Sequence record: MK327932.1
Length of the DNA: 64,000 bases
From: Escherichia phage vB_EcoM_G2248
Strand: one strand, 5' to 3'
Under the pieces are notes generated by a model, which saw only the letters and a program-made list of their open reading frames with translations, ran no database searches and had not been told where the DNA came from. Position 1 is the stretch's first letter. Every line of letters begins with the position of its first letter. Made by a program: the position numbers and the translations under genes. Positions 1,509 through 30,376 of this stretch are shown one piece after another.

Positions 1509-1540
1509 AGTATAGGGGATCTCGCGATCCCCGTCAAGCA
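1509..1540 (-). promoter_or_regulatory. PeSL-like early promoter (-35 TTGACG, palindromic spacer GGGGATCGCGAGATCCCC, -10 TATACT)
   Basis: Reverse complement shows sigma70-like hexamers with an 18-nt palindromic spacer. Confidence 0.45.
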
Positions 1541-1541
1541 T

Positions 1542-2069
1542 TTATTTTAAATTTTTTCGAATGTATTCAGACCATTCCTTCCCTGTCATTTCGGACCCGT
1601 TCTGGAAACTGAAATATTCATACGGCATCGAGTCAAGATAAAACAGGATCATACATCGCGCCATATAATACCAATCACGATTAAAGTAAACTACGTTATC
1701 ACCAGTACCATCAGCACCTTTATCATAACCATCGCGGGTACGGGCGACCCATTGAATAGTATCATTTTTCTCACGGATAGTAACAGGTTCCCAATATCCA
1801 GCACATCCAGCATGACCACACGAACAAGTAAGGAAATATTGACCTTTTGCTTTGTTGTCATCCCATTCACGATGGATTGGTTCGATCTCGTGAAACAATG
1901 CCAAGCAATCATGATTATGCAACACTGGCTTACCATCAATCAATGCATGGAATGTATACAAACGACCAGTAGACAGATAGCTATCCTCACGCTCAACCAG
2001 TTCAATAGCAATCTTTTTAGCTCGTTCTTTGTGTCGTTGTGCTTTACGCTTACGGTTTAATGATTTCAT
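1542..2069 (-). CDS. hypothetical Cys/His-rich protein
   Basis: ORF with ATG at 2069 and RBS GGGGTGA; motif CSCGHAGCAG. Confidence 0.5.
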   Translation of the reverse strand: MKSLNRKRKAQRHKERAKKIAIELVEREDSYLSTGRLYTFHALIDGKPVLHNHDCLALFHEIEPIHREWDDNKAKGQYFLTCSCGHAGCAGYWEPVTIREKNDTIQWVARTRDGYDKGADGTGDNVVYFNRDWYYMARCMILFYLDSMPYEYFSFQNGSEMTGKEWSEYIRKNLK

Positions 2070-2086
2070 ATTCACCCCACACATTA

Positions 2087-2626
2087 TCAAAGGTCGCGAT
2101 ATAGTACATTATGAAAATGAGAACTTGCATTACCAATATTGTAGATAATAAATTCTTCATCCGGCGCTTGCGCTACAAATTGAGTATGAGCAACCGCCAC
2201 AACCTTAAAAATACGATCCGTGATCTTGTGTTTAATTTCTGCCCCTACTTCCATAGGAACATATTCATTTGTTTCTGTTTCAGTCGCAAAACAGCCATCT
2301 TCTTCATAAGCACGAATAAATCGGTCGCAATCAGTACGCTTAACAAATTCAAGAGTATATAATTCTCGTGAATTGTCGGTATAGACCAATACAGAATTAT
2401 TATGATAGCGAATCACATACAGGTTATTATCATCGTCAATTACGCAAAAGCTACGGATTCCTTCGCCTTGACTCCAGCAGATATTAACCACCGTTCCTCT
2501 AATAAAAAAACTTTCCTTTAAATTAAAACTAGCCAATGTGCTAGCGTGCATTTTAACAACAACACCATCACCAATTTCCAGTTTACGAAGTTTAACTTCT
2601 TTGCTCAGTACACAAAACATCATCAT
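2087..2626 (-). CDS. hypothetical protein
   Basis: ORF with RBS GAGAGGA before ATG at 2626. Confidence 0.5.
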   Translation of the reverse strand: MMMFCVLSKEVKLRKLEIGDGVVVKMHASTLASFNLKESFFIRGTVVNICWSQGEGIRSFCVIDDDNNLYVIRYHNNSVLVYTDNSRELYTLEFVKRTDCDRFIRAYEEDGCFATETETNEYVPMEVGAEIKHKITDRIFKVVAVAHTQFVAQAPDEEFIIYNIGNASSHFHNVLYRDL

Positions 2627-2655
2627 GTTGTCCTCTCGTTGTTTTCGATGTGAGC

Positions 2656-2683
2656 ATTATACATTAGCTAATCATGTTGTCAA
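2656..2683 (-). promoter_or_regulatory. sigma70-like early promoter (TTGACA, 16-nt spacer, TATAAT)
   Basis: Reverse complement reads gTTGACAacatgattagctaatgTATAATg. Confidence 0.55.
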
Positions 2684-2690
2684 CACCCCA

Positions 2691-2720
2691 AAACGAAAAA
2701 GCCGACCCTTTCGGATCGGC
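2691..2720 (-). terminator. rho-independent terminator downstream of nrdD
   Basis: Hairpin GCCGACCCTTTCGGATCGGC followed by a T-run on the minus strand. Confidence 0.6.
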
Positions 2721-2726
2721 TAAAAA

Positions 2727-4589: not shown

Positions 4590-4602
4590 TGTATCACCTA
4601 TG

Positions 4603-4625
4603 AAAAAGCGGGATTTTCTCCCGCT
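4603..4625 (-). terminator. hairpin/terminator between the upstream gene and nrdD
   Basis: AGCGGGAGAAAATCCCGCT on the transcribed strand followed by a T-run. Confidence 0.5.
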
Positions 4626-4634
4626 CGTTGATAG

Positions 4635-5129
4635 TTATTTTACCAGTTCTGCTAATTCTTTTTCTTTAGCTTCTAGTTCAGCTTTAAGCTGTTTAATCTC
4701 TTGTCGCTTCTTATTAGCGGCTTCTTGCTTACTATTTCGGATAACCTGATCTAGATACAACTCCCAATCCTGAATATTTTTGATAATGTAACCGTCAACA
4801 TTAATTGGTCGGAGATTCAGTACAGCTTCCAGTTTAGTTGCAAAAACTTTAATTGCTGGTGTGAAGTATTCATATTCGTTATCTTCAAACCAATAACCTA
4901 GACTTGCATTCTCAATACGAAGATGAAGTTTAAGATCAAGGTCTTTATCATCGGTATATAGGTCTTTTACACACCCAATAGAATTAACAACAACTTTAAA
5001 ACGAATTTTATCTACACCACCAAACACATCTTCAAGAATATCAGCAATTGAGCTATTAGCGCAAGATTGGTCGCTGAATGCGTCAAGGTTTTCTTTAGTT
5101 ACAGTATACCAAACATCTTGTACCCACAT
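4635..5129 (-). CDS. hypothetical protein with C-terminal coiled coil
   Basis: ATG at 5129 preceded by the conserved RBS module GAGGATTATATTATG. Confidence 0.55.
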   Translation of the reverse strand: MWVQDVWYTVTKENLDAFSDQSCANSSIADILEDVFGGVDKIRFKVVVNSIGCVKDLYTDDKDLDLKLHLRIENASLGYWFEDNEYEYFTPAIKVFATKLEAVLNLRPINVDGYIIKNIQDWELYLDQVIRNSKQEAANKKRQEIKQLKAELEAKEKELAELVK

Positions 5130-5152
5130 AATATAATCCTCTCGTTGTTAAG

Positions 5153-5187
5153 TGGGAGTATTATAGCATACTCCCTTCGCATGTCAA
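5153..5187 (-). promoter_or_regulatory. PeSL-like early promoter with palindrome GGGAGTATGCTATAATACTCCC
   Basis: TTGACA at 5187..5182, TATAAT at 5165..5160; the palindrome spans the -10. Confidence 0.55.
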
Positions 5188-6362
5188 GCACTAACTTTTT
5201 TCTTTACTGCTTTCACCTTCTGGCGAATTGCTCGAATCTCTTCGATCTCTTTTTCAGTCTCTTTAACAATTTCTTTGCGATTCTGAATATCTGTATCTAG
5301 ATTATCATCAAGTTTAGGCAGCATGTCAATCAAGAACTTTTTAAAGTCTTTCAGGTTTCGGATAACAGCACCTTCACCCATTACCGCCACGCCTACACCA
5401 TCCGGCAGGTCGCCAAACAGTTTAACCAGTTCAGACAGATGATCATGATCTTCTAGTGCTTCTTCCGGTTCAGATGGCAGTTCCACAAAGTAATAACGTT
5501 CATCATTGCTGATCAGGTGATACCAGCAAAGCCCAAAAGATTTAGGAGTATATTCTACACCACCAACTTCAACTGCGTCAACACTTCCGAAAGAATCTAC
5601 TTTAGTTACCTTAAATCCATGTTCCAGCGTTTTAATAATTTCAATAACATGACTGGATACGGTTTCAGTATTAAACCAATGAGGCAAATTATGTGGATTT
5701 GGCTTGTATCGTTCGCCTACTTTAAATCTCTGACCACGCTCTTGCATACGGACATATTCAACTCGCGTGATTTCCGCGAAGTATTCAAATTCGCCACCGT
5801 CAAACACAGAAGCCCATTGATCACAAAAACGATCTGCCTTAACAGTTTCACCTTTCGCGGTGATCATGGTAGCTGATCCGTGCAATTCTTCTTCAACTAA
5901 AAAGCCATATTCGACAAAATCAACAAGTTTCATAGCTTCTTTGTGATCTGGATCATGCTCTCCCCAGAATCGCTTAAATTCTTGCAAACCTTCTGGGGTA
6001 AACGAATAACATTTACCTTTTTCAAAGTAAGTCGGCATTGCATCCTCTTTCTTGTTCATCGCTTCGTATGCCTCTTTTGAGATGCGTTTAAAGTATTTAC
6101 GCTCATTGTGCATAATCATAGTAGCCCAATAATCAACAATATCATTAGCGGAATAAACTACATCTCCAGCTTCAATAGTAATAACATGACCGTGGTCATC
6201 TTTTTCTAATACTTTAAAGCCCTTTTCTACGATTTCAGCAACACGAATATGACCACGGCGCGAAGCATCGGTCAGAATAATTGAATAGCGAGAAAAGTCT
6301 AGAAACTCATCTTTACCGCCTTCACGGAATGCATAGCAATGACCTTCAAAGAATTTAGCCAT
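5184..6362 (-). CDS. hypothetical protein with repeated ~65-aa domain (member of tandem paralog family)
   Basis: 392 aa; internal repeats share GF(K/L)V and NERKYFKRI motifs with the two following genes. Confidence 0.6.
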   Translation of the reverse strand: MAKFFEGHCYAFREGGKDEFLDFSRYSIILTDASRRGHIRVAEIVEKGFKVLEKDDHGHVITIEAGDVVYSANDIVDYWATMIMHNERKYFKRISKEAYEAMNKKEDAMPTYFEKGKCYSFTPEGLQEFKRFWGEHDPDHKEAMKLVDFVEYGFLVEEELHGSATMITAKGETVKADRFCDQWASVFDGGEFEYFAEITRVEYVRMQERGQRFKVGERYKPNPHNLPHWFNTETVSSHVIEIIKTLEHGFKVTKVDSFGSVDAVEVGGVEYTPKSFGLCWYHLISNDERYYFVELPSEPEEALEDHDHLSELVKLFGDLPDGVGVAVMGEGAVIRNLKDFKKFLIDMLPKLDDNLDTDIQNRKEIVKETEKEIEEIRAIRQKVKAVKKKVSA

Positions 6363-6384
6363 AATATAATCCTCTCGTTGTTTA

Positions 6385-6422
6385 GATGGGAGTATCTTAC
6401 TACTCCCGTTTCATCATGTCAA
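6385..6422 (-). promoter_or_regulatory. PeSL-like early promoter with palindrome GGGAGTAGTAAGATACTCCC
   Basis: TTGACA at 6422..6417 overlaps the stop codon of the upstream gene. Confidence 0.5.
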
Positions 6423-6985
6423 GCGTTAAATGACTTTTGGATCTCTTTCAGTTCAGCTACTTTATCGGCGCTATATTTTGCTTGATGTTCCATGCGCTTA
6501 AGCTCACCTTTGATATAGGTTTCTAGCTTAGGTTTATTCTCAATCAGAAAATCTTTCAGGTCATCGGCATTTTTAAAGTATAGCTGATTATCAAAGCTAA
6601 AATCTTCCAGCGTCAATGATACCAAAGAAGACTTCGCAAACAAGTTAATCAGATCTTCCAGAGATTCTTCTTTCTTAATTGGTTTCATTTCTTCAAACTG
6701 CTTTTTAGTGATGCGTTTAAAGTATTTTCGCTCGTTTGCAGCAATCAGAACAGATGCACCTTCATACTCATGAGTTTCTACCAGATACACACGCCCCATC
6801 GCATCAACAGTGAGAACTTTAAAGCCGTTACAAAGCACGTCATACAAGAACTTATTATGTTGCGGACATCGTTTGATAAATTCTGCGACTGTTTCTGCAC
6901 TACGGAAAGTATAGTAACGACCTCGTTCAAAAACAGCGTCATTGGGTGACTTAACCGAATATACTTTGTATGTTTTCTGTACCAT
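6419..6985 (-). CDS. hypothetical protein, paralog of 5184..6362
   Basis: Shares NERKYFKRITKKQFEEM and GFKVLTVD motifs; start placed at ATG 6985 behind RBS GAGGATTATATT. Confidence 0.55.
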   Translation of the reverse strand: MVQKTYKVYSVKSPNDAVFERGRYYTFRSAETVAEFIKRCPQHNKFLYDVLCNGFKVLTVDAMGRVYLVETHEYEGASVLIAANERKYFKRITKKQFEEMKPIKKEESLEDLINLFAKSSLVSLTLEDFSFDNQLYFKNADDLKDFLIENKPKLETYIKGELKRMEHQAKYSADKVAELKEIQKSFNA

Positions 6986-6999
6986 AATATAATCCTCTA

Positions 7000-7272
7000 T
7001 CATTTCACTAATTGAACAGCACGGAACAGAATGCGGTCACACGGAAGCAGCATAAATTCCCAACGCGGATCAAAGTCTTTAGCGGTATATGTTTTCCCAT
7101 CAACCGAGATTTCACTTACATAACCAATAGGTGACACTTTAAGAACAGTAAATCCATTCTTGATGACTTCGTAGGTATCTTTCAATCCTTCGTAGTCATC
7201 CTCTAGGAAGTCTTTACGTGCTTGCTCAGATTTAAAAACATAGGCCACACCGGATTTAAACATCTTACGCAT
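7000..7272 (-). CDS. hypothetical protein, single copy of the paralog domain
   Basis: 90 aa with GFTVLKVSPIGYV motif; RBS AAGGAGAATCAACA before ATG 7272. Confidence 0.5.
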   Translation of the reverse strand: MRKMFKSGVAYVFKSEQARKDFLEDDYEGLKDTYEVIKNGFTVLKVSPIGYVSEISVDGKTYTAKDFDPRWEFMLLPCDRILFRAVQLVK

Positions 7273-7296
7273 TGTTGATTCTCCTTCTTGATTAGA

Positions 7297-7332
7297 TGGG
7301 AGTATTTTACTACTCCCATTTCATGTTGTCAA
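7297..7332 (-). promoter_or_regulatory. PeSL-like early promoter with palindrome GGGAGTAGTAAAATACTCCC
   Basis: TTGACA at 7332..7327, -10 TAAAAT, palindrome spans the -10. Confidence 0.5.
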
Positions 7333-7335
7333 CCA

Positions 7336-7809
7336 CTATCTTAATCTTTGTATGAATTGTTTCTTATACTTCTTCGTGATCTCTTCTCTTGTATCCGCGT
7401 CACAGTAATCGAAACCTTCTGCGTCCATAATAGCAACCATCTCCGCTCGTGTCAAGCGTGAAAATCGTTTTACTTTATCAACAGCATATTGAGGATGTAA
7501 ATGATTGTTGGTGTAGTCTCCTTTGATGTAATTAACATAGTTTGTAGCCCAAACAACGAAATCAGCACCTAAAGCACCAACACCAAACCGTTTAAAGTCT
7601 CCGGTCAACGATCCTTCTAGGCGGTTGCAACACGAATGAAGCAATCCCCTTACGCGGCCTTGCCCTTTCCCATCTAGATCGTGGTCGTGGTCAAGATGGT
7701 TTTTGCTCATATCCTCAAAAAGTGGCAATTGACAAAGGGGGCAAATGCCCCCCTGTTTTTCGAATAGTTCTTGTTTGTACTCTTTAGCACTCTTAGCAGT
7801 CAGTAACAT
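7336..7809 (-). CDS. 49: endonuclease VII (Holliday junction resolvase)
   Basis: Motifs HLDHDHD, GxVRGLL and CxxC match T4 gp49; track TTG start moved to ATG 7809 (MLLTAK...). Confidence 0.9.
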   Translation of the reverse strand: MLLTAKSAKEYKQELFEKQGGICPLCQLPLFEDMSKNHLDHDHDLDGKGQGRVRGLLHSCCNRLEGSLTGDFKRFGVGALGADFVVWATNYVNYIKGDYTNNHLHPQYAVDKVKRFSRLTRAEMVAIMDAEGFDYCDADTREEITKKYKKQFIQRLR

Positions 7810-7833
7810 AAATTCACCCTCCAAAGAAGGTAT

Positions 7834-8115
7834 TTAACCATTAATCTTGTTTTTGACTACAAAGGATCGGAACTCATCAAAACCACCGATATAATCACCA
7901 TCATAGAAAATCTGCGGCATGGTGGCAATAACTTCTACCCCTGCGCGATCCTGAATATCGGCAATGATAGAATCAATCTTTACCGGACGACCGTTTTCGT
8001 CCACACCATCATTAACCGGAATGTAGATGTAAGGGATCTTACGCGCTTCACAAAGGCGCTTTGCATTCTGGCAATACTTACAGTTGTAACCTTCAAAACC
8101 AAAAATTTCTACCAT
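7834..8115 (-). CDS. nrdC: glutaredoxin/thioredoxin-like protein
   Basis: CKYCQNAKRL active site and MPQIFYDGDYIGGFDE resemble T4 NrdC; ATG at 8115. Confidence 0.8.
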   Translation of the reverse strand: MVEIFGFEGYNCKYCQNAKRLCEARKIPYIYIPVNDGVDENGRPVKIDSIIADIQDRAGVEVIATMPQIFYDGDYIGGFDEFRSFVVKNKING

Positions 8116-8123
8116 GTTATACC

Positions 8124-10185: not shown

Positions 10186-10494
10186 TTATTTCACGTTAAC
10201 GCCGTCATCAATCCAGCCGACGCTATTTGGTTTAACAGTTTTACCATAGGATGCATACTTAATCAAGCATGGTTTAACATCATTATCAAATCTTCCTAAA
10301 CGTACTCCCAAATCAGGAATATCCATGTATGCGGCTTTATATCCCCATGTGCCATATTCAGAATCAATCTCAACCGGACGGCCTTTAAAAGCATACACTA
10401 CACCGTGACGGTCAACGATAACATAGCAATAGCCAGCCGGAAGATACACAGTTTCGCCGTAAACTTTAACTGGAGTAGCAGAAGAGATAAACAT
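10186..10494 (-). CDS. hypothetical protein
   Basis: ATG 10494 behind conserved RBS module and a PeSL-like promoter. Confidence 0.5.
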   Translation of the reverse strand: MFISSATPVKVYGETVYLPAGYCYVIVDRHGVVYAFKGRPVEIDSEYGTWGYKAAYMDIPDLGVRLGRFDNDVKPCLIKYASYGKTVKPNSVGWIDDGVNVK

Positions 10495-10520
10495 AATATA
10501 ATCCTCACATCGTTCATTTG

Positions 10521-10557
10521 ATGCGGTTATTATAGGATAACCGCATTTTCATGTCAA
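10521..10557 (-). promoter_or_regulatory. PeSL-like early promoter with palindrome GCGGTTATCCTATAATAACCGC
   Basis: TTGACA at 10557..10552; the palindrome contains the -10 TATAAT. Confidence 0.5.
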
Positions 10558-10563
10558 CAGTTT

Positions 10564-10872
10564 TTAAAAATCTTCTTCCGGTTTATATCGACCGTCATCA
10601 ACTGGTTTTGGACTGAATCCGGTATGTTTGCGCGGCTTCGCTTCCGGTTTCCCCGCAATCATCAAACCAAAACATTTCATCCCCTTATAACACATAACAA
10701 TATCAACCACGGTCCACGTTATAGGCCATACGATTGCAGCAATACAAAATGCTCCTGTATCGACCTCTTTGGTGTCCTTATCGAATCTGGCATACAAGCA
10801 GAATACTAGATACGAGATCATTGCACCAGTAAGCCAGATATAAAGCACATTAACAATATCTTGTGTTGTCAC
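10564..10872 (-). CDS. small membrane protein (2 predicted TM helices)
   Basis: Hydrophobic segments; probable GTG start at 10872 five nt after GGAGGA, right after the upstream stop. Confidence 0.4.
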   Translation of the reverse strand: MTTQDIVNVLYIWLTGAMISYLVFCLYARFDKDTKEVDTGAFCIAAIVWPITWTVVDIVMCYKGMKCFGLMIAGKPEAKPRKHTGFSPKPVDDGRYKPEEDF

Positions 10873-10882: not shown

Positions 10883-11161
10883 TTACATGTCTTGCAGTGC
10901 ATAAAAGCATTTTTCTTCATAGTCATAGAAAATGTCAAAGTATGCTTTTTCTACATACTCACCATTGATCCAAGCGGCAGTAACAATCAGAGTGGTCCAG
11001 TTCGATCCACTCTCAACGGTAAAGGTTTTAATACCCAGCTTCGCTGCCAAGTCGAACGCAAACCGGACGCAACCACGGCAGGAAGTGATATTTGAAGTTT
11101 TGATTTTAAAGCCACCGCGAGTTTTGGTAATTTCTACTTTAGCGAAAGACAGGTTGCTCAT
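10883..11161 (-). CDS. hypothetical protein
   Basis: ATG 11161 behind RBS AAGGAGAATCAAA and a PeSL-like promoter. Confidence 0.5.
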   Translation of the reverse strand: MSNLSFAKVEITKTRGGFKIKTSNITSCRGCVRFAFDLAAKLGIKTFTVESGSNWTTLIVTAAWINGEYVEKAYFDIFYDYEEKCFYALQDM

Positions 11162-11180
11162 TTTGATTCTCCTTAAGAAA

Positions 11181-11232
11181 GTGTGTTTCGTTTTGATGTG
11201 TGTAGTATAGGGGATACGTGATCCCCTGTCAA
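11181..11232 (-). promoter_or_regulatory. PeSL-like early promoter (TTGACA, palindromic spacer GGGGATCACGTATCCCC, TATACT) plus conserved leader
   Basis: Reverse complement shows hexamers 17 nt apart with the palindrome in the spacer. Confidence 0.5.
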
Positions 11233-11240
11233 CAACTTTT

Positions 11241-11570
11241 TTATGATTTTAGTGAATTAACCACTACATCAAAATGATGTACAGAGTACACCTTATTAAA
11301 CACATATTCATCGTGTTTAGGAATAGCCCCTAATCGCTCTATTTCGCTCGCTGACACGATAAACCGTTTATCCGGTGCATTTACCTTATATGCTTCAACA
11401 ACGCACGGAAAACGCGTTTTAGCGAGTTCGGGATAGTTTTCTGACTCCATCAGGACAATGAATACCCTGTTACATTGATTGTAGAATCCTGTTTTTGATT
11501 TCATCAAGTTTTCTTCTATGTTCAAGTCGTGCAATCTTCTTTTCATGATTTCGTTGGTTCTTGTCTTCAC
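11241..11570 (-). CDS. hypothetical protein (start uncertain)
   Basis: Track ORF with GTG start; internal ATGs at 11546 and 11504 are alternatives. Confidence 0.35.
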   Translation of the reverse strand: MKTRTNEIMKRRLHDLNIEENLMKSKTGFYNQCNRVFIVLMESENYPELAKTRFPCVVEAYKVNAPDKRFIVSASEIERLGAIPKHDEYVFNKVYSVHHFDVVVNSLKS

Positions 11571-12959: not shown

Positions 12960-13250
12960 TCAAATACTGGTTTTGCGAAGATGGTCATTACATGCTTTTA
13001 ATGCATCAGTCGAGGTGTCATAGCGAGTATTATCATAGCACCAATAACCATCTGTCAACTGATAAATTAATCCATCCTTTTTAGCGTCGATGAAAGACAA
13101 TTCTTTGAAAGTTTCTACTTTCTTTGCTGATACTCCACGGTCACGGCGTTTATAGAGTTTAGCTAAAACGCGTTCAGCTTGTTCCTCTTTATCGCCAGAC
13201 AGATCCCAGATGACGTTTCTGATATGCTTGATTAATTGTTCAGTGGTCAT
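12960..13250 (-). CDS. hypothetical protein
   Basis: ATG 13250 behind RBS AAGGAGAATCAAAT and a PeSL-like promoter. Confidence 0.5.
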   Translation of the reverse strand: MTTEQLIKHIRNVIWDLSGDKEEQAERVLAKLYKRRDRGVSAKKVETFKELSFIDAKKDGLIYQLTDGYWCYDNTRYDTSTDALKACNDHLRKTSI

Positions 13251-13280
13251 ATTTGATTCTCCTTAGTTGGTATGGTTATC

Positions 13281-13308
13281 ATTATACGGGGATTTCTCCC
13301 CGTGTCAA
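13281..13308 (-). promoter_or_regulatory. PeSL-like early promoter (TTGACA, spacer hairpin CGGGGAGAAATCCCCG, TATAAT)
   Basis: Perfect hexamers 16 nt apart; spacer is the recurrent GGGGAGAAATCCCC hairpin. Confidence 0.6.
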
Positions 13309-13311
13309 CAA

Positions 13312-13533
13312 TTAAATGATCTCTGCTTCACCGTTAAGGAAGAAAGACCATGTTTTGTTAGGATAACGAAGCGCCCATGATTCAGCAGTTTTAACACCAG
13401 CTTCGAACAATTGACGGCTGGTTACTTTAGCCATACCATCTTCGATGGCAACGTTTTCAATAATCATCGGGTACTTAGCGCCACGCATGAAACCGAAGCC
13501 AGTGGAAGATTTGATAATTTTAACAGTTGCCAT
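13312..13533 (-). CDS. small hypothetical protein
   Basis: Start placed at ATG 13533 behind RBS AGGAGAATCAAAA. Confidence 0.45.
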   Translation of the reverse strand: MATVKIIKSSTGFGFMRGAKYPMIIENVAIEDGMAKVTSRQLFEAGVKTAESWALRYPNKTWSFFLNGEAEII

Positions 13534-13550
13534 TTTTGATTCTCCTAGAA

Positions 13551-13602
13551 AGTGTCGTGTTTCGATGGGTGTATTATGCAATAACACCGGATCGCTGTCA
13601 AC
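13551..13602 (-). promoter_or_regulatory. PeSL-like early promoter with conserved leader ATCGAAACACGACACTTTCTAGGAGA
   Basis: TTGACA at 13602..13597, -10 CATAAT; near-identical copies elsewhere. Confidence 0.55.
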
Positions 13603-13619
13603 ACTTTCTAAGAAAAATT

Positions 13620-13904
13620 TTAAATTAATCGAATATAACCAAGAATTTCAGCGCCTTTAGCCAGTCCTAAAACTTCCCATTCAAGGTCGCCGTAGTCATA
13701 ATTTGCAACCATCAACTGACCATTTTTCATGCAGCAATCATGAGAGAAAATTTTCCCCGTATAAACTACGATAGTAATAAACTTTCCTGATTCTGGCGGT
13801 GTGGAAGACAAAGCGACCATATGACCATTCAGCTTAGTCACCAGTGATGGAACAATAAAATTCGGGCTTACCTGAATACCGTTAAATTCGTTTGTGTCTT
13901 TCAT
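13620..13904 (-). CDS. hypothetical protein
   Basis: Track ORF, ATG start. Confidence 0.45.
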   Translation of the reverse strand: MKDTNEFNGIQVSPNFIVPSLVTKLNGHMVALSSTPPESGKFITIVVYTGKIFSHDCCMKNGQLMVANYDYGDLEWEVLGLAKGAEILGYIRLI

Positions 13905-14586: not shown

Positions 14587-14785
14587 TCTTCACGGTCTCC
14601 ATAATTGTTTTGTAAGCCAGCTTAAAATGATCACCGAAAAACTTTGCGGTGTTACCATTCGGATCGCGGAGCATGGTTTCTACGATCTCATCGGCAGTAA
14701 CAATTTCTCCTTTCTTTGCTGCATGTTCTACCATATACTTCAAAGTTTCTTCGGAGGCAAGTGCTGCGGCTACTGGATTAATCAT
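14576..14785 (-). CDS. hypothetical protein
   Basis: ATG 14785 downstream of a PeSL-like promoter. Confidence 0.45.
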   Translation of the reverse strand: MINPVAAALASEETLKYMVEHAAKKGEIVTADEIVETMLRDPNGNTAKFFGDHFKLAYKTIMETVKNAK

Positions 14786-14800
14786 TTTGGTTCTCCTTTG

Positions 14801-14843
14801 TTGTCGATGTGTGCATTATGCTATACCCTATTCCGGTTGTCAA
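14801..14843 (-). promoter_or_regulatory. PeSL-like early promoter
   Basis: TTGACA at 14843..14838 with -10 CATAAT. Confidence 0.5.
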
Positions 14844-14850
14844 CACCTAA

Positions 14851-14883
14851 AAACGAAAAAGCCACCCTTTCGGATGGCTTTTT
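14851..14883. terminator. bidirectional rho-independent terminator
   Basis: Hairpin GCCACCCTTTCGGATGGC flanked by an A-run and a T-run; follows the stop of the 714-aa gene. Confidence 0.6.
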
Positions 14884-19934: not shown

Positions 19935-20525
19935 TCAATAGCGTTTAGTCTTAAGAATGCCTTTACTCTTTAGATGGTTGGCCTTTTTTAGTACGTCATC
20001 AGCATAACCTAATCCGGCTTTATAGTTCCATCCAGCATTGTAAGAAGCTAGCGCGAGTCGGATATTACCGTTTCGAACATCCAGCCAGTATGCTAACTCA
20101 TCCATCGCGTAGAATGCAGAAACCTCGCGATTCATGATAAAGTTGATAGTCTGGCGATCACTCATTTTAACACCGCGCTTTGCATTTTTCGCTTTCACCG
20201 TTTTAAGGTAATTTTGAAATAATCCATAAGCATGATGATTTTTCTTTGGTGCTAAGTTTGCACCCGCGCTTGATTCTTGCCATGCGATACCCGCCAGGAT
20301 GTGGCCTAAACCCTTTCCGTCATAGCGAATATTCGGATGGTCATTTTTCAACTTACCGCTTTTCTCGAATTGTTCGCCATATTGATAGGCGAAATGTAAA
20401 TTATCTAGTTGGTGTGCTGTAAAGTTGTCTATCGGCGCTTTTTTGATCGGTGCGCTAGTCGATGCGTGTGTAGCACCAACGGCTAGTGACAGACTCAATA
20501 CTATCGCTTTTAGAACTTTTAACAT
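19935..20525 (-). CDS. secreted lytic transglycosylase (SLT domain)
   Basis: Signal peptide; SLT motifs GIAWQESS and AYGLFQ. Confidence 0.65.
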   Translation of the reverse strand: MLKVLKAIVLSLSLAVGATHASTSAPIKKAPIDNFTAHQLDNLHFAYQYGEQFEKSGKLKNDHPNIRYDGKGLGHILAGIAWQESSAGANLAPKKNHHAYGLFQNYLKTVKAKNAKRGVKMSDRQTINFIMNREVSAFYAMDELAYWLDVRNGNIRLALASYNAGWNYKAGLGYADDVLKKANHLKSKGILKTKRY

Positions 20526-20559
20526 TAATTTCTCCTGTTTGGCTTAACTTTCTGATTCC

Positions 20560-20589
20560 ATAATATAGCCCTATCACCAGAAAGTCAAG
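20560..20589 (-). promoter_or_regulatory. possible sigma70-like promoter (TTGACT, 18-nt spacer, TATTAT)
   Basis: Hexamers on the minus strand in the regB to SLT gap. Confidence 0.3.
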
Positions 20590-20612
20590 CATTATTTTTA
20601 ACCAATTTTCCA

Positions 20613-21035
20613 TTATTGGTCTACCTTCAAAACAACCGCCGACATTTTACCCGCCAGTCGTTTTGGATTCTCTATAATCATTCGACAGCATAGACCGTGA
20701 TATGGCTTACCCTCTTCGATTAGATCTACTGTCATCCCGATCCACATGTTGCCGTCAGTAATTTCTAATCGATTAGGTCGGTCTTCCATTTTCAGGAAGT
20801 CGAAGATCTCCGGCAAACGAGTTTCTATCTTATTGAATAATTCCATTGTCTTATGTTCATCGATATGACGATCGGTTAGACGGTCGATCATATGCGGACT
20901 AAAGCGAATGAAAATATACTCACCGTAACCATCATTCAAGCACTTTTCTTTGATCTGCGCATTGGTTTTGCGCATTTCGGTTTCGAAGAATCTACGCAGC
21001 TTACTACGGCGAACATGTACGTTAATTGTTTCCAT
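20613..21035 (-). CDS. regB: RegB-like site-specific endoribonuclease
   Basis: RRSKLRRFFETEMRK, RLEITDGNMWIGMTV and CRMIIENPKRLAGKMSAVVLK match T4 RegB (from memory); ATG 21035. Confidence 0.75.
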   Translation of the reverse strand: METINVHVRRSKLRRFFETEMRKTNAQIKEKCLNDGYGEYIFIRFSPHMIDRLTDRHIDEHKTMELFNKIETRLPEIFDFLKMEDRPNRLEITDGNMWIGMTVDLIEEGKPYHGLCCRMIIENPKRLAGKMSAVVLKVDQ

Positions 21036-21039: not shown

Positions 21040-21375
21040 TTATCCTTTCTTAAACAAATTGCGAATCCAGTATACAAACGGGATTTCTTTAAACTTGAAT
21101 TTCTCTATAGTTAATTCTTTAGTAGCAAGATGAATACCATAAGCATCATGTGTCACGATATGCCATTTTCTATAGTCCAAATGTGAACAACCGTCTGGAT
21201 CTAGGTTAATAAGAGTTTCTCGCTCACTAGGATTATTTTTCCACAATTTTGTAATAGGATCGCACATAATTCGACCTAGCGTACCATGAATAATCTCACA
21301 ACGGTAAAGTTTTCCAGCAGTGAGATAGGCGCACCCGTCATAGTCGGTATAAACAAACACTTCTTTAATACTCAT
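21040..21375 (-). CDS. hypothetical protein (GCSHL paralog family)
   Basis: Start at ATG 21375 with RBS AAGGAG; motif DGCSHLDYRKWHIV. Confidence 0.45.
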   Translation of the reverse strand: MSIKEVFVYTDYDGCAYLTAGKLYRCEIIHGTLGRIMCDPITKLWKNNPSERETLINLDPDGCSHLDYRKWHIVTHDAYGIHLATKELTIEKFKFKEIPFVYWIRNLFKKG

Positions 21376-21390
21376 TTTAATACTCCTTTG

Positions 21391-21432
21391 TTTCGATGGG
21401 GGTATATTACTACCCCCGTTTTGTTGTGTCAA
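21391..21432 (-). promoter_or_regulatory. PeSL-like early promoter with palindrome GGGGGTAGTAATATACCCCC
   Basis: TTGACA at 21432..21427; the palindrome spans the -10. Confidence 0.5.
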
Positions 21433-21678
21433 CTACTTTTTCAAGATTTTTTTAATTGCGTTCCAAAGACCTTTATTCTCAGGTTGTTTTGGTTCTTCGA
21501 TCAGTGTCCATGTTCGACCGTCTAAGTGTGCACAATTTTTAAGACAAATAAAAATCTGGTGTCCCTTATCATCACGGATATAACCACTATTCGCAAATCT
21601 TTCATGTGGTGTATATTCATACAGTGTATTTGGTGTAATATACTTGCGGTTACTATAAGGTGTCATCACATACATCAT
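21433..21678 (-). CDS. hypothetical protein (GCSHL paralog family)
   Basis: Motif NCAHLDGRTWTLI; start placed at ATG 21678. Confidence 0.4.
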   Translation of the reverse strand: MMYVMTPYSNRKYITPNTLYEYTPHERFANSGYIRDDKGHQIFICLKNCAHLDGRTWTLIEEPKQPENKGLWNAIKKILKK

Positions 21679-27017: not shown

Positions 27018-27344
27018 TTAGAAAGAAACAGTTTTCAAGAAATCCAGATTTTTAGTACCGAAAACAGAAAAGTAGTGTTTTCCTTTTTCGGTTTTAGAGA
27101 AAGCGATTGTCTTCTCTACATGGTGACGGAAGCCAGACAGACGATCACCCAGGTCAAGGCGGCAAGCGTAAGTAGTGCCGTTTTCGAAAGTAACCTCGAT
27201 TTGAGTTTTGTCATATTCGCTTTCATAGGCTTTTGCTGCCGCGTCCTGTGCTTTACGCTCGAAGTCTTCGAAGTGGAATACTTCGTTTGCGTTAGCGAAT
27301 ACAGAAGATTCAGAGAAGATAACTTTAACAGATACTGGTTTCAT
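27018..27344 (-). CDS. hypothetical protein
   Basis: ATG 27344 behind RBS AAGGAGTATCAAA and a PeSL-like promoter. Confidence 0.5.
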   Translation of the reverse strand: MKPVSVKVIFSESSVFANANEVFHFEDFERKAQDAAAKAYESEYDKTQIEVTFENGTTYACRLDLGDRLSGFRHHVEKTIAFSKTEKGKHYFSVFGTKNLDFLKTVSF

Positions 27345-27360
27345 TTTGATACTCCTTAGT

Positions 27361-27415
27361 AGTTCGTGTTTCGTTTCGATGGGTGTATTATGCTATACAC
27401 CCTCTCTCGTGTCAA
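27361..27415 (-). promoter_or_regulatory. PeSL-like early promoter plus conserved leader
   Basis: TTGACA at 27415..27410, -10 CATAAT, leader ACACCCATCGAAACGAAACACGAACT. Confidence 0.55.
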
Positions 27416-27423
27416 CAACTTTT

Positions 27424-27612
27424 TTAGTCTTTTTTCATAATTTCTAGAGCAGTTTCTACAGCACCTTTCCAACCTTCCCACATAATGGACATAGTAAGGA
27501 AGTTAAAGCACCCGCAGGAATCAACCTTTTTAGAGATAAACCATTCTACAAACGCTTCGCTCATACCATGCTCTTTAGCGGATTCGCGTAATTGTTCAAT
27601 TTGGTCTTCCAT
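27424..27612 (-). CDS. hypothetical protein
   Basis: Track ORF, ATG start. Confidence 0.4.
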   Translation of the reverse strand: MEDQIEQLRESAKEHGMSEAFVEWFISKKVDSCGCFNFLTMSIMWEGWKGAVETALEIMKKD

Positions 27613-27634
27613 AGTATCACCTCAACACTTAACG

Positions 27635-27829: not shown

Positions 27830-27838
27830 ATTACCCCC

Positions 27839-28060
27839 TTATAGTTGATCAGCGATGTAAGCGTGACAAGCGCGGAGTTTCATTAATGCACTACCTTTCA
27901 CTTCGCCTACGATGTTCATAACTTCTAAGCGGTCGGATGGATTCATCTTAGAGCACCAGATCTGGTTAGCCAATTCCAGTTTACTCATATTTGGTTCCAT
28001 CTCAAACAGTTCACGCTCAAAGTCGATAATTTCTTTTGCTGCGTCTTTAAAGTTAATCAT
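27839..28060 (-). CDS. hypothetical protein
   Basis: ATG 28060 behind GGAGAATCAAA-type RBS and a PeSL-like promoter. Confidence 0.5.
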   Translation of the reverse strand: MINFKDAAKEIIDFERELFEMEPNMSKLELANQIWCSKMNPSDRLEVMNIVGEVKGSALMKLRACHAYIADQL

Positions 28061-28074
28061 TTTGATTCTCCCGT

Positions 28075-28118
28075 TTCGTTGATGGTTGTATTGTAGGGGA
28101 GTTATCCTCCCCTGTCAA
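28075..28118 (-). promoter_or_regulatory. PeSL-like early promoter with palindrome AGGGGAGGATAACTCCCCT
   Basis: TTGACA at 28118..28113; G-rich palindrome in the spacer. Confidence 0.5.
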
Positions 28119-28126
28119 CACTTTTA

Positions 28127-28312
28127 TCAGAAATATGCAATATAGTTTGCCAGTCCTACAGAGTCATCATTCGGCATTGCTTTTACTGCCAGTTCAAACC
28201 CTACTTCAACTTTCTGTTTAGCGGATTCTTCGTTATAACCCCAGATTACCAGAATAGCTACTACGTTTTCTTTGCTTACTGCTTTCAGTGCTTTAGTGAT
28301 GCGACGTGCCAT
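28127..28312 (-). CDS. hypothetical protein
   Basis: ATG 28312 behind RBS ACGGAGAATCAAATT. Confidence 0.45.
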   Translation of the reverse strand: MARRITKALKAVSKENVVAILVIWGYNEESAKQKVEVGFELAVKAMPNDDSVGLANYIAYF

Positions 28313-28330
28313 AATTTGATTCTCCGTTTA

Positions 28331-28385
28331 AGAAAGTGTGTTTCGTTTCGATGGGTGTATTATGCTATAGGCCGGATCTGGTGTC
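28331..28385 (-). promoter_or_regulatory. PeSL-like early promoter plus conserved leader
   Basis: Near-identical to the copy at 27361..27415. Confidence 0.55.
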
Positions 28386-28412
28386 AACAACTTTTTTAAA
28401 AAAATTTTAGGC

Positions 28413-28437
28413 AATAAAAAAGCCACTCCGAAGAGTG
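28413..28437 (-). terminator. rho-independent terminator
   Basis: Hairpin GCCACTCTTCGGAGTGGC with a UUCG-type loop followed by TTTTTTATT on the minus strand. Confidence 0.65.
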
Positions 28438-28440
28438 GCT

Positions 28441-28588
28441 TATAGGGAAGGTAGCGAATCTTCCTTGTCTCCAACCTGCTAGCGGCCTAGCAAGTGAATG
28501 CTTTAGCGTACCGGATCGCCCATACGCTGCAATAAATGCGGCTAGGTGACGTCCAAATCATTCTAACCGCGCTGTCTTTAGTTCACTA
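28441..28588 (-). ncRNA. candidate structured non-coding region or small RNA just upstream of a terminator
   Basis: About 145 nt without a credible ORF, more GC-rich than its surroundings, several local hairpins (GGAAG...CTTCC, GCGTA...TACGC). Confidence 0.25.
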
Positions 28589-28807
28589 TTATTTATATCG
28601 CTTTCTCTCGCGACGTTTTTGATCTTCTTCCTTGATAGAGTTAAATGCATCAAAAAGACACATGACACTAATAATAAACATAACCGTATTTTCTACGGTA
28701 TCCCACGGCTTCGCATCAGTACAGATCCCCCAAACGGTAAGAAATGCAAATAAGGCAGAAGAGATCACAAGAATGATACTTGCTAAAATATAAAAAGTCA
28801 TTTTCAT
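28589..28807 (-). CDS. small membrane protein
   Basis: Hydrophobic 72-aa ORF. Confidence 0.4.
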   Translation of the reverse strand: MKMTFYILASIILVISSALFAFLTVWGICTDAKPWDTVENTVMFIISVMCLFDAFNSIKEEDQKRRERKRYK

Positions 28808-29207: not shown

Positions 29208-29310
29208 AGCGCCACCATACAACAGATCATAAGAAACCCCAACGCAATAAGAATTGCATCAAATTTAGTGAACTCAGGTCCACCTATCAACATCATTCGT
29301 TCCTGTTCAT

Positions 29311-29550
29311 TCATAGATCACAGAGCCATCTTACAGCACCACATAAAGCGATCAAAAGACTAGGTATAAACGAGACTAAAACAAGACTACAAAAATCATC
29401 TAAGGTAACGCCGGAATAGCTACCTACTGTAACAACACCGATCATCAGACACAGAAAGAAAACAAATGCAATCAGAAACAAAGTATTGCTAAACAGTTTA
29501 GTGATCATTAGACACCCCACGACGATCAATTTCAAAAACTTTTTTATCAT
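29311..29550 (-). CDS. small membrane protein
   Basis: Hydrophobic; start moved to ATG 29550. Confidence 0.4.
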   Translation of the reverse strand: MIKKFLKLIVVGCLMITKLFSNTLFLIAFVFFLCLMIGVVTVGSYSGVTLDDFCSLVLVSFIPSLLIALCGAVRWLCDL

Positions 29551-29701
29551 CAACGAAGCATGTCACAACTGCATCGTTGACTTCCGCAAATTGTTGTGTT
29601 ACCCACTTAAGGTCAGAGCGAAACAATGTTCTATTAATAACAAATGTTTTACCGCTCTTATCCTTACCCATAAATTTTGCTTTAACCATATCAAATTCCA
29701 T
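29498..29701 (-). CDS. hypothetical protein
   Basis: Track ORF, ATG 29701. Confidence 0.4.
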   Translation of the reverse strand: MEFDMVKAKFMGKDKSGKTFVINRTLFRSDLKWVTQQFAEVNDAVVTCFVDDKKVFEIDRRGVSNDH

Positions 29702-29710
29702 ATTATCACC

Positions 29711-29869
29711 TTATTTGCTAATCGCTAAACCCAATCCGAAGAGAGCACCCGATGCTACAGTATACCCGAAAGTTTCAAATGCAGTAAAGATATCTAAGCC
29801 ACCAGCTAACAGAGTTGCAGTAAACAGAGTACCAGCTACGAACATAAAAGTTTTACCGATAAATTTCAT
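29711..29869 (-). CDS. small membrane protein (52 aa, below track cutoff)
   Basis: Own translation MKFIGKTFMFVAGTLFTATLLAGG...; RBS AGGAGAATCAAA; PeSL-like promoter directly upstream. Confidence 0.45.
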   Translation of the reverse strand: MKFIGKTFMFVAGTLFTATLLAGGLDIFTAFETFGYTVASGALFGLGLAISK

Positions 29870-29880
29870 TTTGATTCTCC

Positions 29881-29929
29881 TTTCGTTTGTTTGTGGGGGT
29901 ATCTTACTACCCCCGTTTCATGTTGTCAA
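29881..29929 (-). promoter_or_regulatory. PeSL-like early promoter with palindrome GGGGGTAGTAAGATACCCCC
   Basis: TTGACA at 29929..29924; the palindrome spans the -10. Confidence 0.5.
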
Positions 29930-29935
29930 CTATTT

Positions 29936-30310
29936 TTAAGAATATTTTACTTCGTCTACAATGTCTTTCATGACATTGATTTCCATTCCGGTCAGAACAC
30001 GTTGGAACATGTGCTGCACATACGCTTTCAGGTATTCATTTGATGGCTTACTATCGAAAGTCTTTTTAGTGTAGTAGTCATCACCGAAAGCTACTGTAAT
30101 TACATTTTCGTCGTCGTTCCAAGCGATATAAGCAAATTTGCCGTTATCCCAGAAGCGAGCACTAATTGCTACTTTTGTTGAATCGAATCCTACTTCGCTG
30201 TGAGATTCAAGAACTACTTGCGTACCAGTTTCTTTATGAATGTAGTAGCGGGATACTAAGTCAAAGTTACGGGTGTAGTGACATTCGAATTTATCTTTAA
30301 ACATCATCAT
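29936..30310 (-). CDS. hypothetical protein
   Basis: Start placed at ATG 30310 behind RBS AGGAGAATCAAA; the track ORF extends further. Confidence 0.45.
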   Translation of the reverse strand: MMMFKDKFECHYTRNFDLVSRYYIHKETGTQVVLESHSEVGFDSTKVAISARFWDNGKFAYIAWNDDENVITVAFGDDYYTKKTFDSKPSNEYLKAYVQHMFQRVLTGMEINVMKDIVDEVKYS

Positions 30311-30322
30311 TTTGATTCTCCT

Positions 30323-30376
30323 AAGTGTGTTTCGTTTCGATATGTGCATTATGCTATAGTCGTTTATGGTTGTCAA
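30323..30376 (-). promoter_or_regulatory. PeSL-like early promoter plus conserved leader
   Basis: TTGACA at 30376..30371, -10 CATAAT, leader ATCGAAACGAAACACACTTAGGAGA. Confidence 0.55.

Follow-up and report, generated by a model that had tools for sequence, protein, structure and literature searches.

Repeated promoter, hairpin and ribosome-binding-site modules in the early region of a Krischvirus genome as promoter-early stem-loop cassettes

Results

The window, that is, the whole 64,000-nt stretch of Escherichia phage vB_EcoM_G2248 (MK327932.1) analysed here, is a Krischvirus segment, from an RB49/Phi1-like T4-type coliphage, and shows 96-99% identity to public genomes including Phi1 and RB49. 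Between the ORFs of its nrdG-to-57B region, equivalent to Phi1 ORF053-ORF125, lie 17 promoter, Shine-Dalgarno and ATG cassettes, all on the minus strand between 1464 and 30413. Cassettes were defined by a -35 matching at least five of six positions, at least 10 of 12 matches over both hexamers, and a Shine-Dalgarno sequence with ATG within 70 nt. The minus strand of positions 1-36000 contains 18 of them, against 0.67 ± 0.84 expected from 200 first-order Markov simulations, none of which gave more than 4; promoters matching at 11 or more of the 12 positions number 19, against 0.77 expected. A weak cassette at 35286 is doubtful. The region also encodes regB (about 20616-21035). Searches of the whole window with Rfam (gathering thresholds) and ARAGORN gave no matches. 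A sequence-only reading of this DNA had proposed about 18 minus-strand copies and listed 15 sites. All 15 are real, each lying no more than about 25 nt from a cassette's -10 or leader; the listed coordinates point to the right loci but are approximate and do not mark element starts. Two further cassettes that it missed, with -35 elements at 2683 and 20588, complete the 17.

A stable hairpin occupies one of three fixed positions in 15 of the 17 minus-strand cassettes. In class A it fills the promoter spacer, as in the cassettes at 1464..1567 (-35 TTGACG, 1537-1532; hairpin GGGGATCGCGAGATCCCC, 1532-1515, -12.5 kcal/mol; -10 TATACT, 1514-1509; RBS GGAGAATCAAA, 1478-1468; ATG, 1466-1464), 11159..11262 (-35, 11232-11227; hairpin AGGGGATCACGTATCCCCT, 11227-11209, -9.3 kcal/mol; leader ATCAAAACGAAACAC; RBS GGAGAATCAAA; ATG, 11161-11159), 13248..13338 (-35, 13308-13303; hairpin ACGGGGAGAAATCCCCGT, 13303-13286; -10 TATAAT, 13286-13281; RBS GGAGAATCAAA; ATG, 13250-13248) and 28058..28148 (-35, 28118-28113; hairpin AGGGGAGGATAACTCCCCT, 28113-28095, -12.8 kcal/mol; -10 TACAAT; RBS GGAGAATCAAA; ATG, 28060-28058).

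The class B hairpin lies over the -10. Cassettes of this kind are found at 5127..5217 (-35, 5187-5182; hairpin GGGAGTATGCTATAATACTCCC, 5175-5154, -11.8 kcal/mol; -10 TATAAT, 5165-5160; RBS GAGGATTATATT; ATG, 5129-5127), 6360..6452 (-35, 6422-6417; hairpin GGGAGTAGTAAGATACTCCC, 6407-6388, -10.4 kcal/mol; RBS GAGGATTATATT; ATG, 6362-6360), 7270..7362 (-35, 7332-7327; hairpin ATGGGAGTAGTAAAATACTCCCAT, 7319-7296, -13.1 kcal/mol; RBS GGAGAATCAAC; ATG, 7272-7270), 10492..10587 (-35, 10557-10552; hairpin ATGCGGTTATCCTATAATAACCGCAT, 10546-10521, -12.1 kcal/mol; RBS GAGGATTATATT; ATG, 10494-10492), 21373..21462, which is the best match to the covariance model described below (-35, 21432-21427; hairpin GGGGGTAGTAATATACCCCC, 21417-21398, -12.5 kcal/mol; RBS GGAGTATTAAA; ATG, 21375-21373), 27342..27445 (-35, 27415-27410; hairpin GGGTGTATAGCATAATACACCC, 27402-27381, -10.6 kcal/mol; leader ATCGAAACGAAACAC; RBS GGAGTATCAAA; ATG, 27344-27342) and 29867..29959 (-35, 29929-29924; hairpin GGGGGTAGTAAGATACCCCC, 29914-29895, -12.5 kcal/mol; RBS GGAGAATCAAA; ATG, 29869-29867).

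Class C cassettes have a separate canonical terminator upstream of the -35 instead. On the minus strand they lie at 2624..2721 (terminator AGCCGATCCGAAAGGGTCGGCT plus TTTTCGTTTT, 2721-2700, -16.0 kcal/mol; -35, 2683-2678; -10 TATAAT, 2661-2656; RBS GAGGACAAC; ATG, 2626-2624), 14783..14883 (terminator AAAAAGCCATCCGAAAGGGTGGCTTTTT, 14883-14856, -16.9 kcal/mol; -35, 14843-14838; -10 CATAAT; RBS GGAGAACCAAA; ATG, 14785-14783), 28310..28441 (terminator AAGCCACTCTTCGGAGTGGCTT plus TTTT, 28441-28420, -14.3 kcal/mol; -35, 28387-28382; decayed class B remnant CTATAGCATAATACACCC; leader ATCGAAACGAAACAC; RBS GGAGAATCAAA; ATG, 28312-28310) and 30308..30413 (terminator ACCCCGAAAATTTTTCGGGGT plus TTTTTGTTTT, 30413-30393, -12.3 kcal/mol; -35, 30376-30371; leader ATCGAAACGAAACAC; RBS GGAGAATCAAA; ATG, 30310-30308). 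The sole plus-strand cassette, at 44519..44619 within the late-gene block, is also of class C and heads three small ORFs (terminator AAAAGCCAATTCGAGAGAGTTGGCTTTT, 44519-44546, -15.1 kcal/mol; -35 TTGACA, 44560-44565; -10 TATAAT, 44582-44587; ATG, 44617-44619).

The two remaining minus-strand cassettes are exceptions. At 13531..13631 a one-base slip leaves a degenerate class B hairpin, GGTGTTATTGCATAATACACC (-7.0 kcal/mol, or -2.0 as a perfect stem; -35, 13601-13596; RBS GGAGAATCAAA; ATG, 13533-13531), and at 20523..20618, between regB and vs.1, an early-type promoter and RBS stand without a hairpin (-35 TTGACT, 20588-20583; -10 TATTAT; ATG, 20525-20523); a promoter is annotated at the homologous GEC-3S site. 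Overall, 17 of 19 cassettes contain a hairpin of -9.3 kcal/mol or below, compared with 8.8% of random 103-nt windows on the same strand, and these two are the failures. The G-rich palindrome in the spacer or -10 that the sequence-only reading had ascribed to the modules is thus a property of 11 copies and not of the four minus-strand class C cassettes, the degenerate copy or the copy at 20588.

These modules are almost certainly PeSL (promoter-early stem-loop) cassettes of a Krischvirus, compact intergenic units read on the early (minus) strand. PeSLs were defined, named and assayed in Phi1 and RB49 (Arbiol et al., 2010, Genome Biol Evol 2:140, PMC2839356) and were treated again by Comeau et al. 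(2014, PMC4122927). By definition they are intergenic elements of T4-type genomes, clustered in hyperplastic regions, where they precede small ORFs without known function; their stable hairpin, typically a G-run followed by a C-run, lies between the promoter boxes, overlaps a box or sits just up- or downstream of the promoter, and at their 3' end they provide the downstream gene with its Shine-Dalgarno sequence and start codon (Arbiol et al., 2010). The cassettes agree with this definition in genome type and location, architecture, strand, intergenic position and GN-loop-CN stems. Every copy matches at 10 or more of the 12 hexamer positions, with a 16-17-nt spacer and an A-rich stretch from -30 to -1, and has its Shine-Dalgarno sequence and ATG 15-35 nt past the -10. 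We found no essential difference from the published PeSLs of Phi1 and RB49 (Arbiol et al., 2010; Comeau et al., 2014), which come from the same genus, occupy orthologous positions, show the same strand bias and hyperplastic-region location, and share an A-rich upstream stretch, a near-perfect TTGACA-N17-TATAAT, a GN-loop-CN stem-loop at variable position and a 3' Shine-Dalgarno sequence with ATG; the five published hairpin positions are grouped here into three classes. The sequence-only reading had called the modules PeSL-like and of RB49 type, which holds more literally than proposed, the window itself being an RB49/Phi1-type genome. The observation is correct but ordinary: the class has been known since 2010, and the public GEC-3S record already carries promoters and terminators at homologous sites. 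Beyond the PeSL papers go the mutual exclusivity of embedded hairpin and upstream terminator, purifying selection on the stems, and the RegB/S1-like RBS GGAGAATCAAA.

Besides the hexamers, the column profile of the cassettes shows a conserved G at -36, the A-rich upstream stretch, a C-rich -6 to -1 and the start of CATC(G/A)AAAC; conservation limited to generic sigma70 hexamers would have spoken against the sequence-only reading, and it extends past them. Features of the RB49 early-promoter consensus (G at -36, T/C at -12, C-rich -3 to -1), which agrees with 5'-end mapping (Nolan 2006), recur in this profile. Each cassette would be driven by the A-rich upstream region and a near-consensus host sigma-70 promoter (G-TTGACA, 16-17 nt, T/CATAAT), with transcription predicted to begin about 7 nt past the -10, at the conserved CATC(G/A)AAAC. 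We infer promoter activity and start sites in this genome from the sequence; for homologous PeSL copies both activity and 5' ends have been shown experimentally. The full 15-mer leader occurs in three exact copies and one with a single mismatch. Allowing three mismatches gave 7 matches against 2.9 expected, a number reached by 4 of 100 shuffles, and with this weak enrichment the full 15-mer was rejected as a general cassette feature.

In a MAFFT alignment of all class B copies, the 5' arms of 22-nt hairpins did not line up with those of 20-nt hairpins. The covariance model was built from one class B register only, and the remaining copies were re-aligned by the model. In the alignment of 36 copies, whose fit to the model structure favours pairing, 95.6% of cells were paired, double changes occurred in 5 of 7 pairs and 0 of 500 shuffles reached the observed values; the stems covary. 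Across seven orthologous genomes, variable sites made up 1.0% of the -35, 2.1% of the -10, 3.2% of the stems and 4.8% of the stretch from Shine-Dalgarno to ATG, as against 23.5% of the unpaired spacer, 25.6% of the loops and 7-12% of the flanking coding sequence. Stems are about as conserved as the -35 and -10 hexamers, and loops and unpaired spacer bases drift.

This pattern bears on the idea that the palindromes are DNA operators through which a dimeric protein, of phage or host, would shut off the early promoters. Palindromic operators classically lie in the spacer or over the -10, and in RB49-type phages, which are without MotA-type middle transcription, another switch might be expected. 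However, at least five unrelated stem sequences keep their pairing through double changes, variability is highest in the loops and the unpaired spacer, the copies share no single recognition sequence, and the embedded palindromes are missing exactly where an upstream RNA terminator exists. An operator function is therefore highly improbable.

The last point reflects a strict division. In the window five cassettes have a terminator, 11 an embedded hairpin, none both and three neither (Fisher p = 0.0048); the corresponding numbers for a whole RB49-type genome are 11, 26, 0 and 27 (p = 0.0019). Class C copies retain a decayed class B remnant, TATAGCATAATGCAC. This exclusivity would be left unexplained, as would the fixed position just upstream of the start, if the palindromes acted in DNA, as cruciforms or single-strand hairpins that draw recombination or endonuclease VII and so make hotspots. 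The phage does encode endonuclease VII, and one mini-circle crossover was mapped inside a loop (Arbiol et al., 2010). We consider this reading, like the operator, very unlikely. At 7-10 bp, with loops of 4-6 nt, the stems are short for cruciforms to extrude.

A role in RNA fits these observations better. Whether it occupies the spacer, as in class A, or covers the -10 and discriminator, as in class B, the G-run/C-run hairpin lies upstream of the cassette's own start and would therefore appear only in read-through RNA from the upstream unit, where it may end, attenuate or 3'-protect the transcript; in class C this task would fall to the separate canonical terminator, which precedes the -35 by 15-35 nt. 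We infer this role on the upstream transcript from the selection on pairing, the mutual exclusivity, the position and a published lacZ assay, in which the stem-loop of RB49 PeSL211/210, identical to that of the copy at 11232, performed like rrnB T1 (Arbiol et al., 2010). The assayed hairpin, as read from the RB49 record, is of class A, the sole kind assayed in the literature, and its tail is the U-rich -10 (UAUACU). A lacZ assay cannot tell termination from destabilisation.

Class B hairpins have U-poor tails, with 0-2 T in 8, so that efficient intrinsic termination at them is doubtful. The hairpins, class B above all, may thus be non-terminating and serve as 3'-end exonuclease barriers or processing sites that set upstream message stability after read-through. 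The scarcity of U after class B stems and the U-rich tail of the one assayed hairpin favour such a function; on the other side, that embedded hairpins and canonical terminators never occur together points to a shared role, and G/C-rich stems of 7-10 bp can still pause or weakly terminate. We regard a purely non-terminating function as possible, though not probable.

Relatives for the comparison of gene content were drawn from the GenBank phage collection; an IMG/VR search with RegB gave one locus. Sixteen of the 17 cassettes, with about 150 nt of the downstream gene, are colinear in at least four of seven genomes. The cassette at 13308 has an ortholog only in G5211; in these two genomes it replaces the [terminator + gp38 + class C cassette] of RB49, Phi1, SSG23 and JK32, and its downstream gene also follows the class C cassette in RB49. 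Variation in gene presence concerns the genes of an HNH-AP2 endonuclease and of a CapR-domain endonuclease, gp38, and a 714-aa ORF that an internal deletion has removed. Comparison of the window with nine relatives placed 3 of 32 unique indel or replacement breakpoints no farther than 20 nt from a cassette, where chance would give about 2.5; this is not a significant enrichment (binomial p = 0.47). With no enrichment of breakpoints and with downstream genes conserved across the genus, a "recently acquired" status of the genes directly downstream of cassettes is unsupported; the proposal that the small flanked ORFs are the best candidates for recent acquisition fails at genus depth.

The cassettes could be ordinary early promoters and terminators, whose likeness reflects shared function and old duplication, a regulatory punctuation with no special role in shuffling. 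The same place and same downstream gene of 16 of 17 cassettes, the chance-level breakpoint count, and presence/absence differences that come down to homing-endonuclease genes and an internal deletion all speak for this. Against it, two copies separated by 82 kb are near-identical for about 100 nt, even in parts without obvious functional constraint, and upstream, core and leader modules recur among the cassettes in mosaic combinations. The gp38 swap has a cassette at its boundary, cassettes mark the ends of three divergent-allele tracts, and recombinant mini-circles with junctions inside PeSLs have been sequenced (Arbiol et al., 2010). We regard the punctuation reading as possible, though less likely than not. 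Near-identity over such a length, even at a distance of 82 kb, would let copies supply portable homology to recombination. In the assembly of Krischvirus LF73P4 (OZ035795), the junctions of two nested inversions also fall at a cassette pair; these inversions may be real or may stem from misassembly. Signs of shuffling at cassettes are confined here to a few sites, and cassette-bounded recombination in this window is clear only at the gp38 locus.

The two RBS modules named by the sequence-only reading differ in their distribution. All 11 minus-strand copies of GGAGAATCAAA are at cassettes (1.9 copies expected) and this module is cassette-specific, whereas GAGGATTATATT has 8 of its 11 copies at internal genes without a promoter and was rejected as a cassette component, being a generic RBS of this phage. 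GAGGATTATATTATG has 11 copies, three of them at cassettes. In a RegB-encoding phage, the RegB/S1 target is an 11-nt single-stranded consensus, GGAGRAYARAA, usually in the Shine-Dalgarno region of early genes (Durand et al., 2006, PMC1702504). GGAGAATCAAA matches it at 10 of 11 positions, with C at position 8 where A is preferred, and the RBS of 9 of the 17 minus-strand cassettes fits GGAGRAYNRAA (GGAGAATCAAA in eight, GGAGAACCAAA in one). This relaxed motif has 10 copies in the window against 1.0 expected, nine of them in cassette leaders; genome-wide, 21 of 24 are in cassette leaders.

Discussion

The short A/C-rich leader of a cassette ends in the RBS, and where this fits GGAGRAYNRAA the first genes could be switched off post-transcriptionally through its cleavage by RegB. 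Since the RBS resembles the RegB target and the phage encodes RegB, such shut-off probably occurs; neither the RegB/S1-like RBS nor the shut-off step appears in the two PeSL papers (Arbiol et al., 2010; Comeau et al., 2014). We lean slightly towards the view that each cassette is a self-contained "pulse" expression unit whose RBS, GGAGAAUCAAA, is a near-consensus RegB/S1 site almost confined to promoter-proximal leaders. T4 early promoters with RegB-sensitive GGAG Shine-Dalgarno sequences likewise use host sigma-70 and an A-rich upstream region (Durand 2006; Uzan and Miller 2010). In T4 early genes as in cassette first genes, GGAG is followed by an A-rich stretch, the cassettes carrying predicted sites that match GGAGRAYARAA at 10 of 11 positions. 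Unlike the cassettes, T4 early promoters have GTTTAC-type -35 boxes and are generally without a hairpin embedded in the promoter. Morons of lambdoid phages, too, are placed between resident genes as self-contained units of expression that bring a promoter and a terminator of their own, but no conserved repeats flank them and they are considered to insert illegitimately, whereas the PeSL regulatory sequences are repeated and can supply homology (Arbiol et al., 2010, discussion).

The cassettes carry little weight as a discovery, and their practical value is in annotation: with them, 17 early transcription units can be marked and several start codons put right, as for the ORF at 1314, which begins at 1466 and not at 1541. 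The refinements, namely hairpin/terminator exclusivity, selection on the stems and the RegB-like RBS, may help users of the cassettes as compact insulated expression parts, and may likewise help studies of early-gene shut-off in RB49-type phages, which are without MotA-type middle transcription. If the pulse-unit reading is true, a gene acquiring a cassette would at one stroke be expressed early by the host machinery, insulated from transcription upstream and shut off at a time set by the phage, and genes with the other RBS, GAGGAUUAUAUU, would escape RegB.

PeSL cassettes in the window

Megablast searches with window 1000-9000 and 1-25000 matched about 60 Krischvirus genomes, including RB49, Phi1, JSE and GEC-3S, in colinear order and at 93-99% identity; vB_EcoM_G5211 and G37-3 were closest. 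Window 1-35500, reading on the minus strand, is the counterpart of Phi1 ORF051 through gene 4, and the plus-strand late baseplate genes start at about 35900. The cassettes repeated here (promoter, Shine-Dalgarno (SD) sequence and ATG, mostly with a hairpin; named by -35 start coordinate) are promoter-early stem-loops (PeSLs). The sequence-only reading had identified them correctly: PeSLs were first defined in Phi1 and RB49 (Arbiol et al. 2010, PMC2839356), members of the same group as the window, and their description was later widened to other T4-type phages (Comeau et al. 2014, PMC4122927).

All 15 coordinates listed in that reading fall within the -10 or leader of a genuine module. A uniform scan, which required at least 5/6 matches in the -35, at least 10/12 over both hexamers, and SD and ATG within 70 nt, gave 18 modules on minus strand 1-36000, against 0.67 ± 0.84 expected from 200 Markov-1 simulations. 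The range first described, 1509-30376, holds 17, adding 2683 and 20588 to those listed; the module at 35286 is doubtful. A generic promoter scan agreed in strand and region bias. The one plus-strand module, at 44560, is an early-type cassette within the late baseplate block and precedes three ORFs of 85, 108 and 279 aa (44617-46031, +), all starting MAR; the ORF downstream of cassette 28387 starts MARR.

Similarity restricted to generic sigma70 hexamers would have spoken against a shared element. The column profile shows further conservation, with G at -36, an A-rich stretch from -30 to -1, a C-rich one from -6 to -1 and a predicted transcription start of CATC(G/A)AAAC. The same features were reported for RB49 early promoters and said to agree with 5'-end mapping (Nolan et al. 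2006). A covariance model trained on nine copies of one subclass matched the minus strand only, and retrieved five more window copies from other subclasses (E = 1e-4 to 0.02).

Position and conservation of the hairpin

Hairpins of -9.3 kcal/mol or better are present in 17 of 19 modules versus 8.8% of random windows, and occupy three positions. Class A cassettes (1537, 11232, 13308 and 28118, all -) carry the hairpin in the spacer, and the U-rich tail that follows it is provided by the -10 itself. In class B (5187, 6422, 7332, 10557, 21432, 27415 and 29929, with 13601 as a degenerate member, all -) it lies over the -10 and discriminator. In class C (2683, 14843, 28387 and 30376, -; 44560, +) the -35 is preceded by a separate element, a canonical terminator with a T-run, and a decayed class B remnant is still present. 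Several class A stems contain GATC sites in the form GGGGATC...GATCCCC (1532-1515 and 11227-11209, -); the phage encodes a Dam methylase (dam, 8124-8936, -).

In a 36-copy alignment fitted to a covariance model, a procedure that favours pairing, 95.6% of cells pair and both sides have changed in 5 of 7 pairs; these values were attained by 0 of 500 shuffles, and slid controls pair at 39-72%. The alternation of A-U, G-C and U-A at one stem position is evident in the raw sequences. At 16 cassettes compared across seven colinear genomes, variable sites make up 1.0% of the -35, 2.1% of the -10, 3.2% of stems and 4.8% of the SD-to-ATG segment, rising to 12.3% in leaders, 23.5% in unpaired spacer and 25.6% in loops; flanking coding sequence varies at 7-12%. 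Upstream terminators and embedded hairpins never coincide: in the window 5 cassettes have a terminator, 11 have an embedded hairpin, none has both and 3 lack both (p = 0.0048), and the corresponding counts for 64 cassettes of OZ035808, a whole RB49-type genome, are 11, 26, 0 and 27 (p = 0.0019). Covariation, low stem variability and this exclusivity together argue that the hairpin is selected as a structure.

Because pairing appears selected, hairpin and terminator exclude each other and class C retains class B remnants, the data indicate that both would serve a single function in the upstream transcript, at the RNA level: termination, attenuation or 3' protection. The cassette's own message would not contain the embedded hairpin, which lies upstream of its start. 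The PeSL211/210 stem-loop GGGGATCACGTATCCCC, which reduced lacZ expression as rrnB T1 does (Arbiol et al. 2010, PMC2839356), is identical to that of cassette 11232. Class B tails are U-poor, so efficient termination at these hairpins is doubtful.

Between the Phi1 ORF118 and ORF117 homologs, about 177 nt (28414-28590, -) contain no ORF and end in the terminator of cassette 28387. The predicted fold comprises three hairpins together with the terminator (-63.9 kcal/mol, z = -3.7, 0/200 shuffles). Conservation across seven genomes is 97-99%, and the changes are concentrated in one hairpin. Neither Rfam nor tRNA searches gave a match, and the stretch is a candidate small RNA or structured 3' UTR.

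Gene content and rearrangement at cassettes

Chained alignments of the window with nine relatives revealed few clean events bounded by cassettes; of the 32 unique breakpoints, 3 are found 20 nt or less from a cassette, versus about 2.5 expected (p = 0.47). The clearest event is at the gp38 locus, which in RB49, Phi1, SSG23 and JK32 consists of a terminator, gp38 and a class C cassette. The window and G5211 lack this tail-fibre adhesin gene, which may bear on host range, and have a single class A cassette instead (13275-13311). The gp38-carrying segment of other Krischviruses spans about 0.9 kb, and homology picks up again in the shared leader. Three divergent-allele tracts end beside cassettes (1556, 2604 and 5106). 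The proposal that the small ORFs at cassettes were recently acquired is unsupported at this depth, since cassette and start of the downstream gene align in at least 4 of 7 colinear genomes for 16 of 17 cassettes.

Much of the window's difference in gene content is explained by two genes. One encodes a 191-aa HNH-AP2 endonuclease (HNH_3 and AP2; 23781-24356, -) and is found in RB49, G5211 and JK32, not in Phi1, GEC-3S, SSG23 or Brandy; the other, a 376-aa CapR-domain endonuclease-type gene (32918-34048, -), has a counterpart in Phi1 alone (ORF130.1). An HNH gene in GEC-3S is a further difference. A 714-aa ORF (14893-17037, -), intact in the window, SSG23, Brandy and JK32, is cut in RB49, GEC-3S, G5211 and Phi1 by an internal deletion of about 1.9-2.0 kb that leaves a short remnant (Phi1 'ORF084.1'). 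No Pfam family was matched. In PHROG, residues 478-698 align with positions 963-1145 of 1150, at the C-terminal end of the 'Hoc-like head decoration' family (E = 4e-11).

Cassette copies are mosaic, and some are near-identical across about 100 nt though 82 kb apart, which is ample homology for T4-type recombination. Mini-circle junctions inside PeSLs have been sequenced (Arbiol et al. 2010, PMC2839356). The order of OZ035795 (Krischvirus LF73P4) equals the RB49 order, as in OZ035808, after two nested inversions, with junctions at two near-identical PeSLs (the homolog of 11232 and PeSL211/210) and at a non-PeSL inverted repeat of about 100 nt. This layout is either a true repeat-mediated rearrangement or an assembly artefact; in the repeat graph it is also the alternative path, so misassembly could have produced it. 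The non-PeSL repeat (32480-32577, +) is non-coding and contains two short hairpins, GTCGCTTTGCGAC and GTGCCGTAGGCAC; a second copy, inverted, lies about 77 kb from it, the two being at about 63.3 and 140.4 kb in OZ035808.

RBS modules and RegB

Of two RBS modules initially assigned to the cassettes, GGAGAATCAAA holds: all 11 of its minus-strand occurrences (at most one mismatch) lie in cassettes. GAGGATTATATTATG was rejected in this role; 8 of its 11 copies precede internal genes without a promoter, so it is a general RBS of the phage. GGAGAATCAAA agrees at 10 of 11 positions with GGAGRAYARAA, the target consensus of RegB with S1, whose T4 form is GGAGAAUAAAA (Durand et al. 2006). For GGAGRAYNRAA the window has 10 occurrences, where 1.0 is expected; nine are in cassette leaders, as are 21 of 24 occurrences in OZ035808. 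The window also contains regB. We infer that the promoter-proximal early genes are putative RegB targets. RegB is mentioned in neither PeSL paper (Arbiol et al. 2010; Comeau et al. 2014), and the RegB link is the one addition here to what is published on PeSLs; it would extend known T4 biology.
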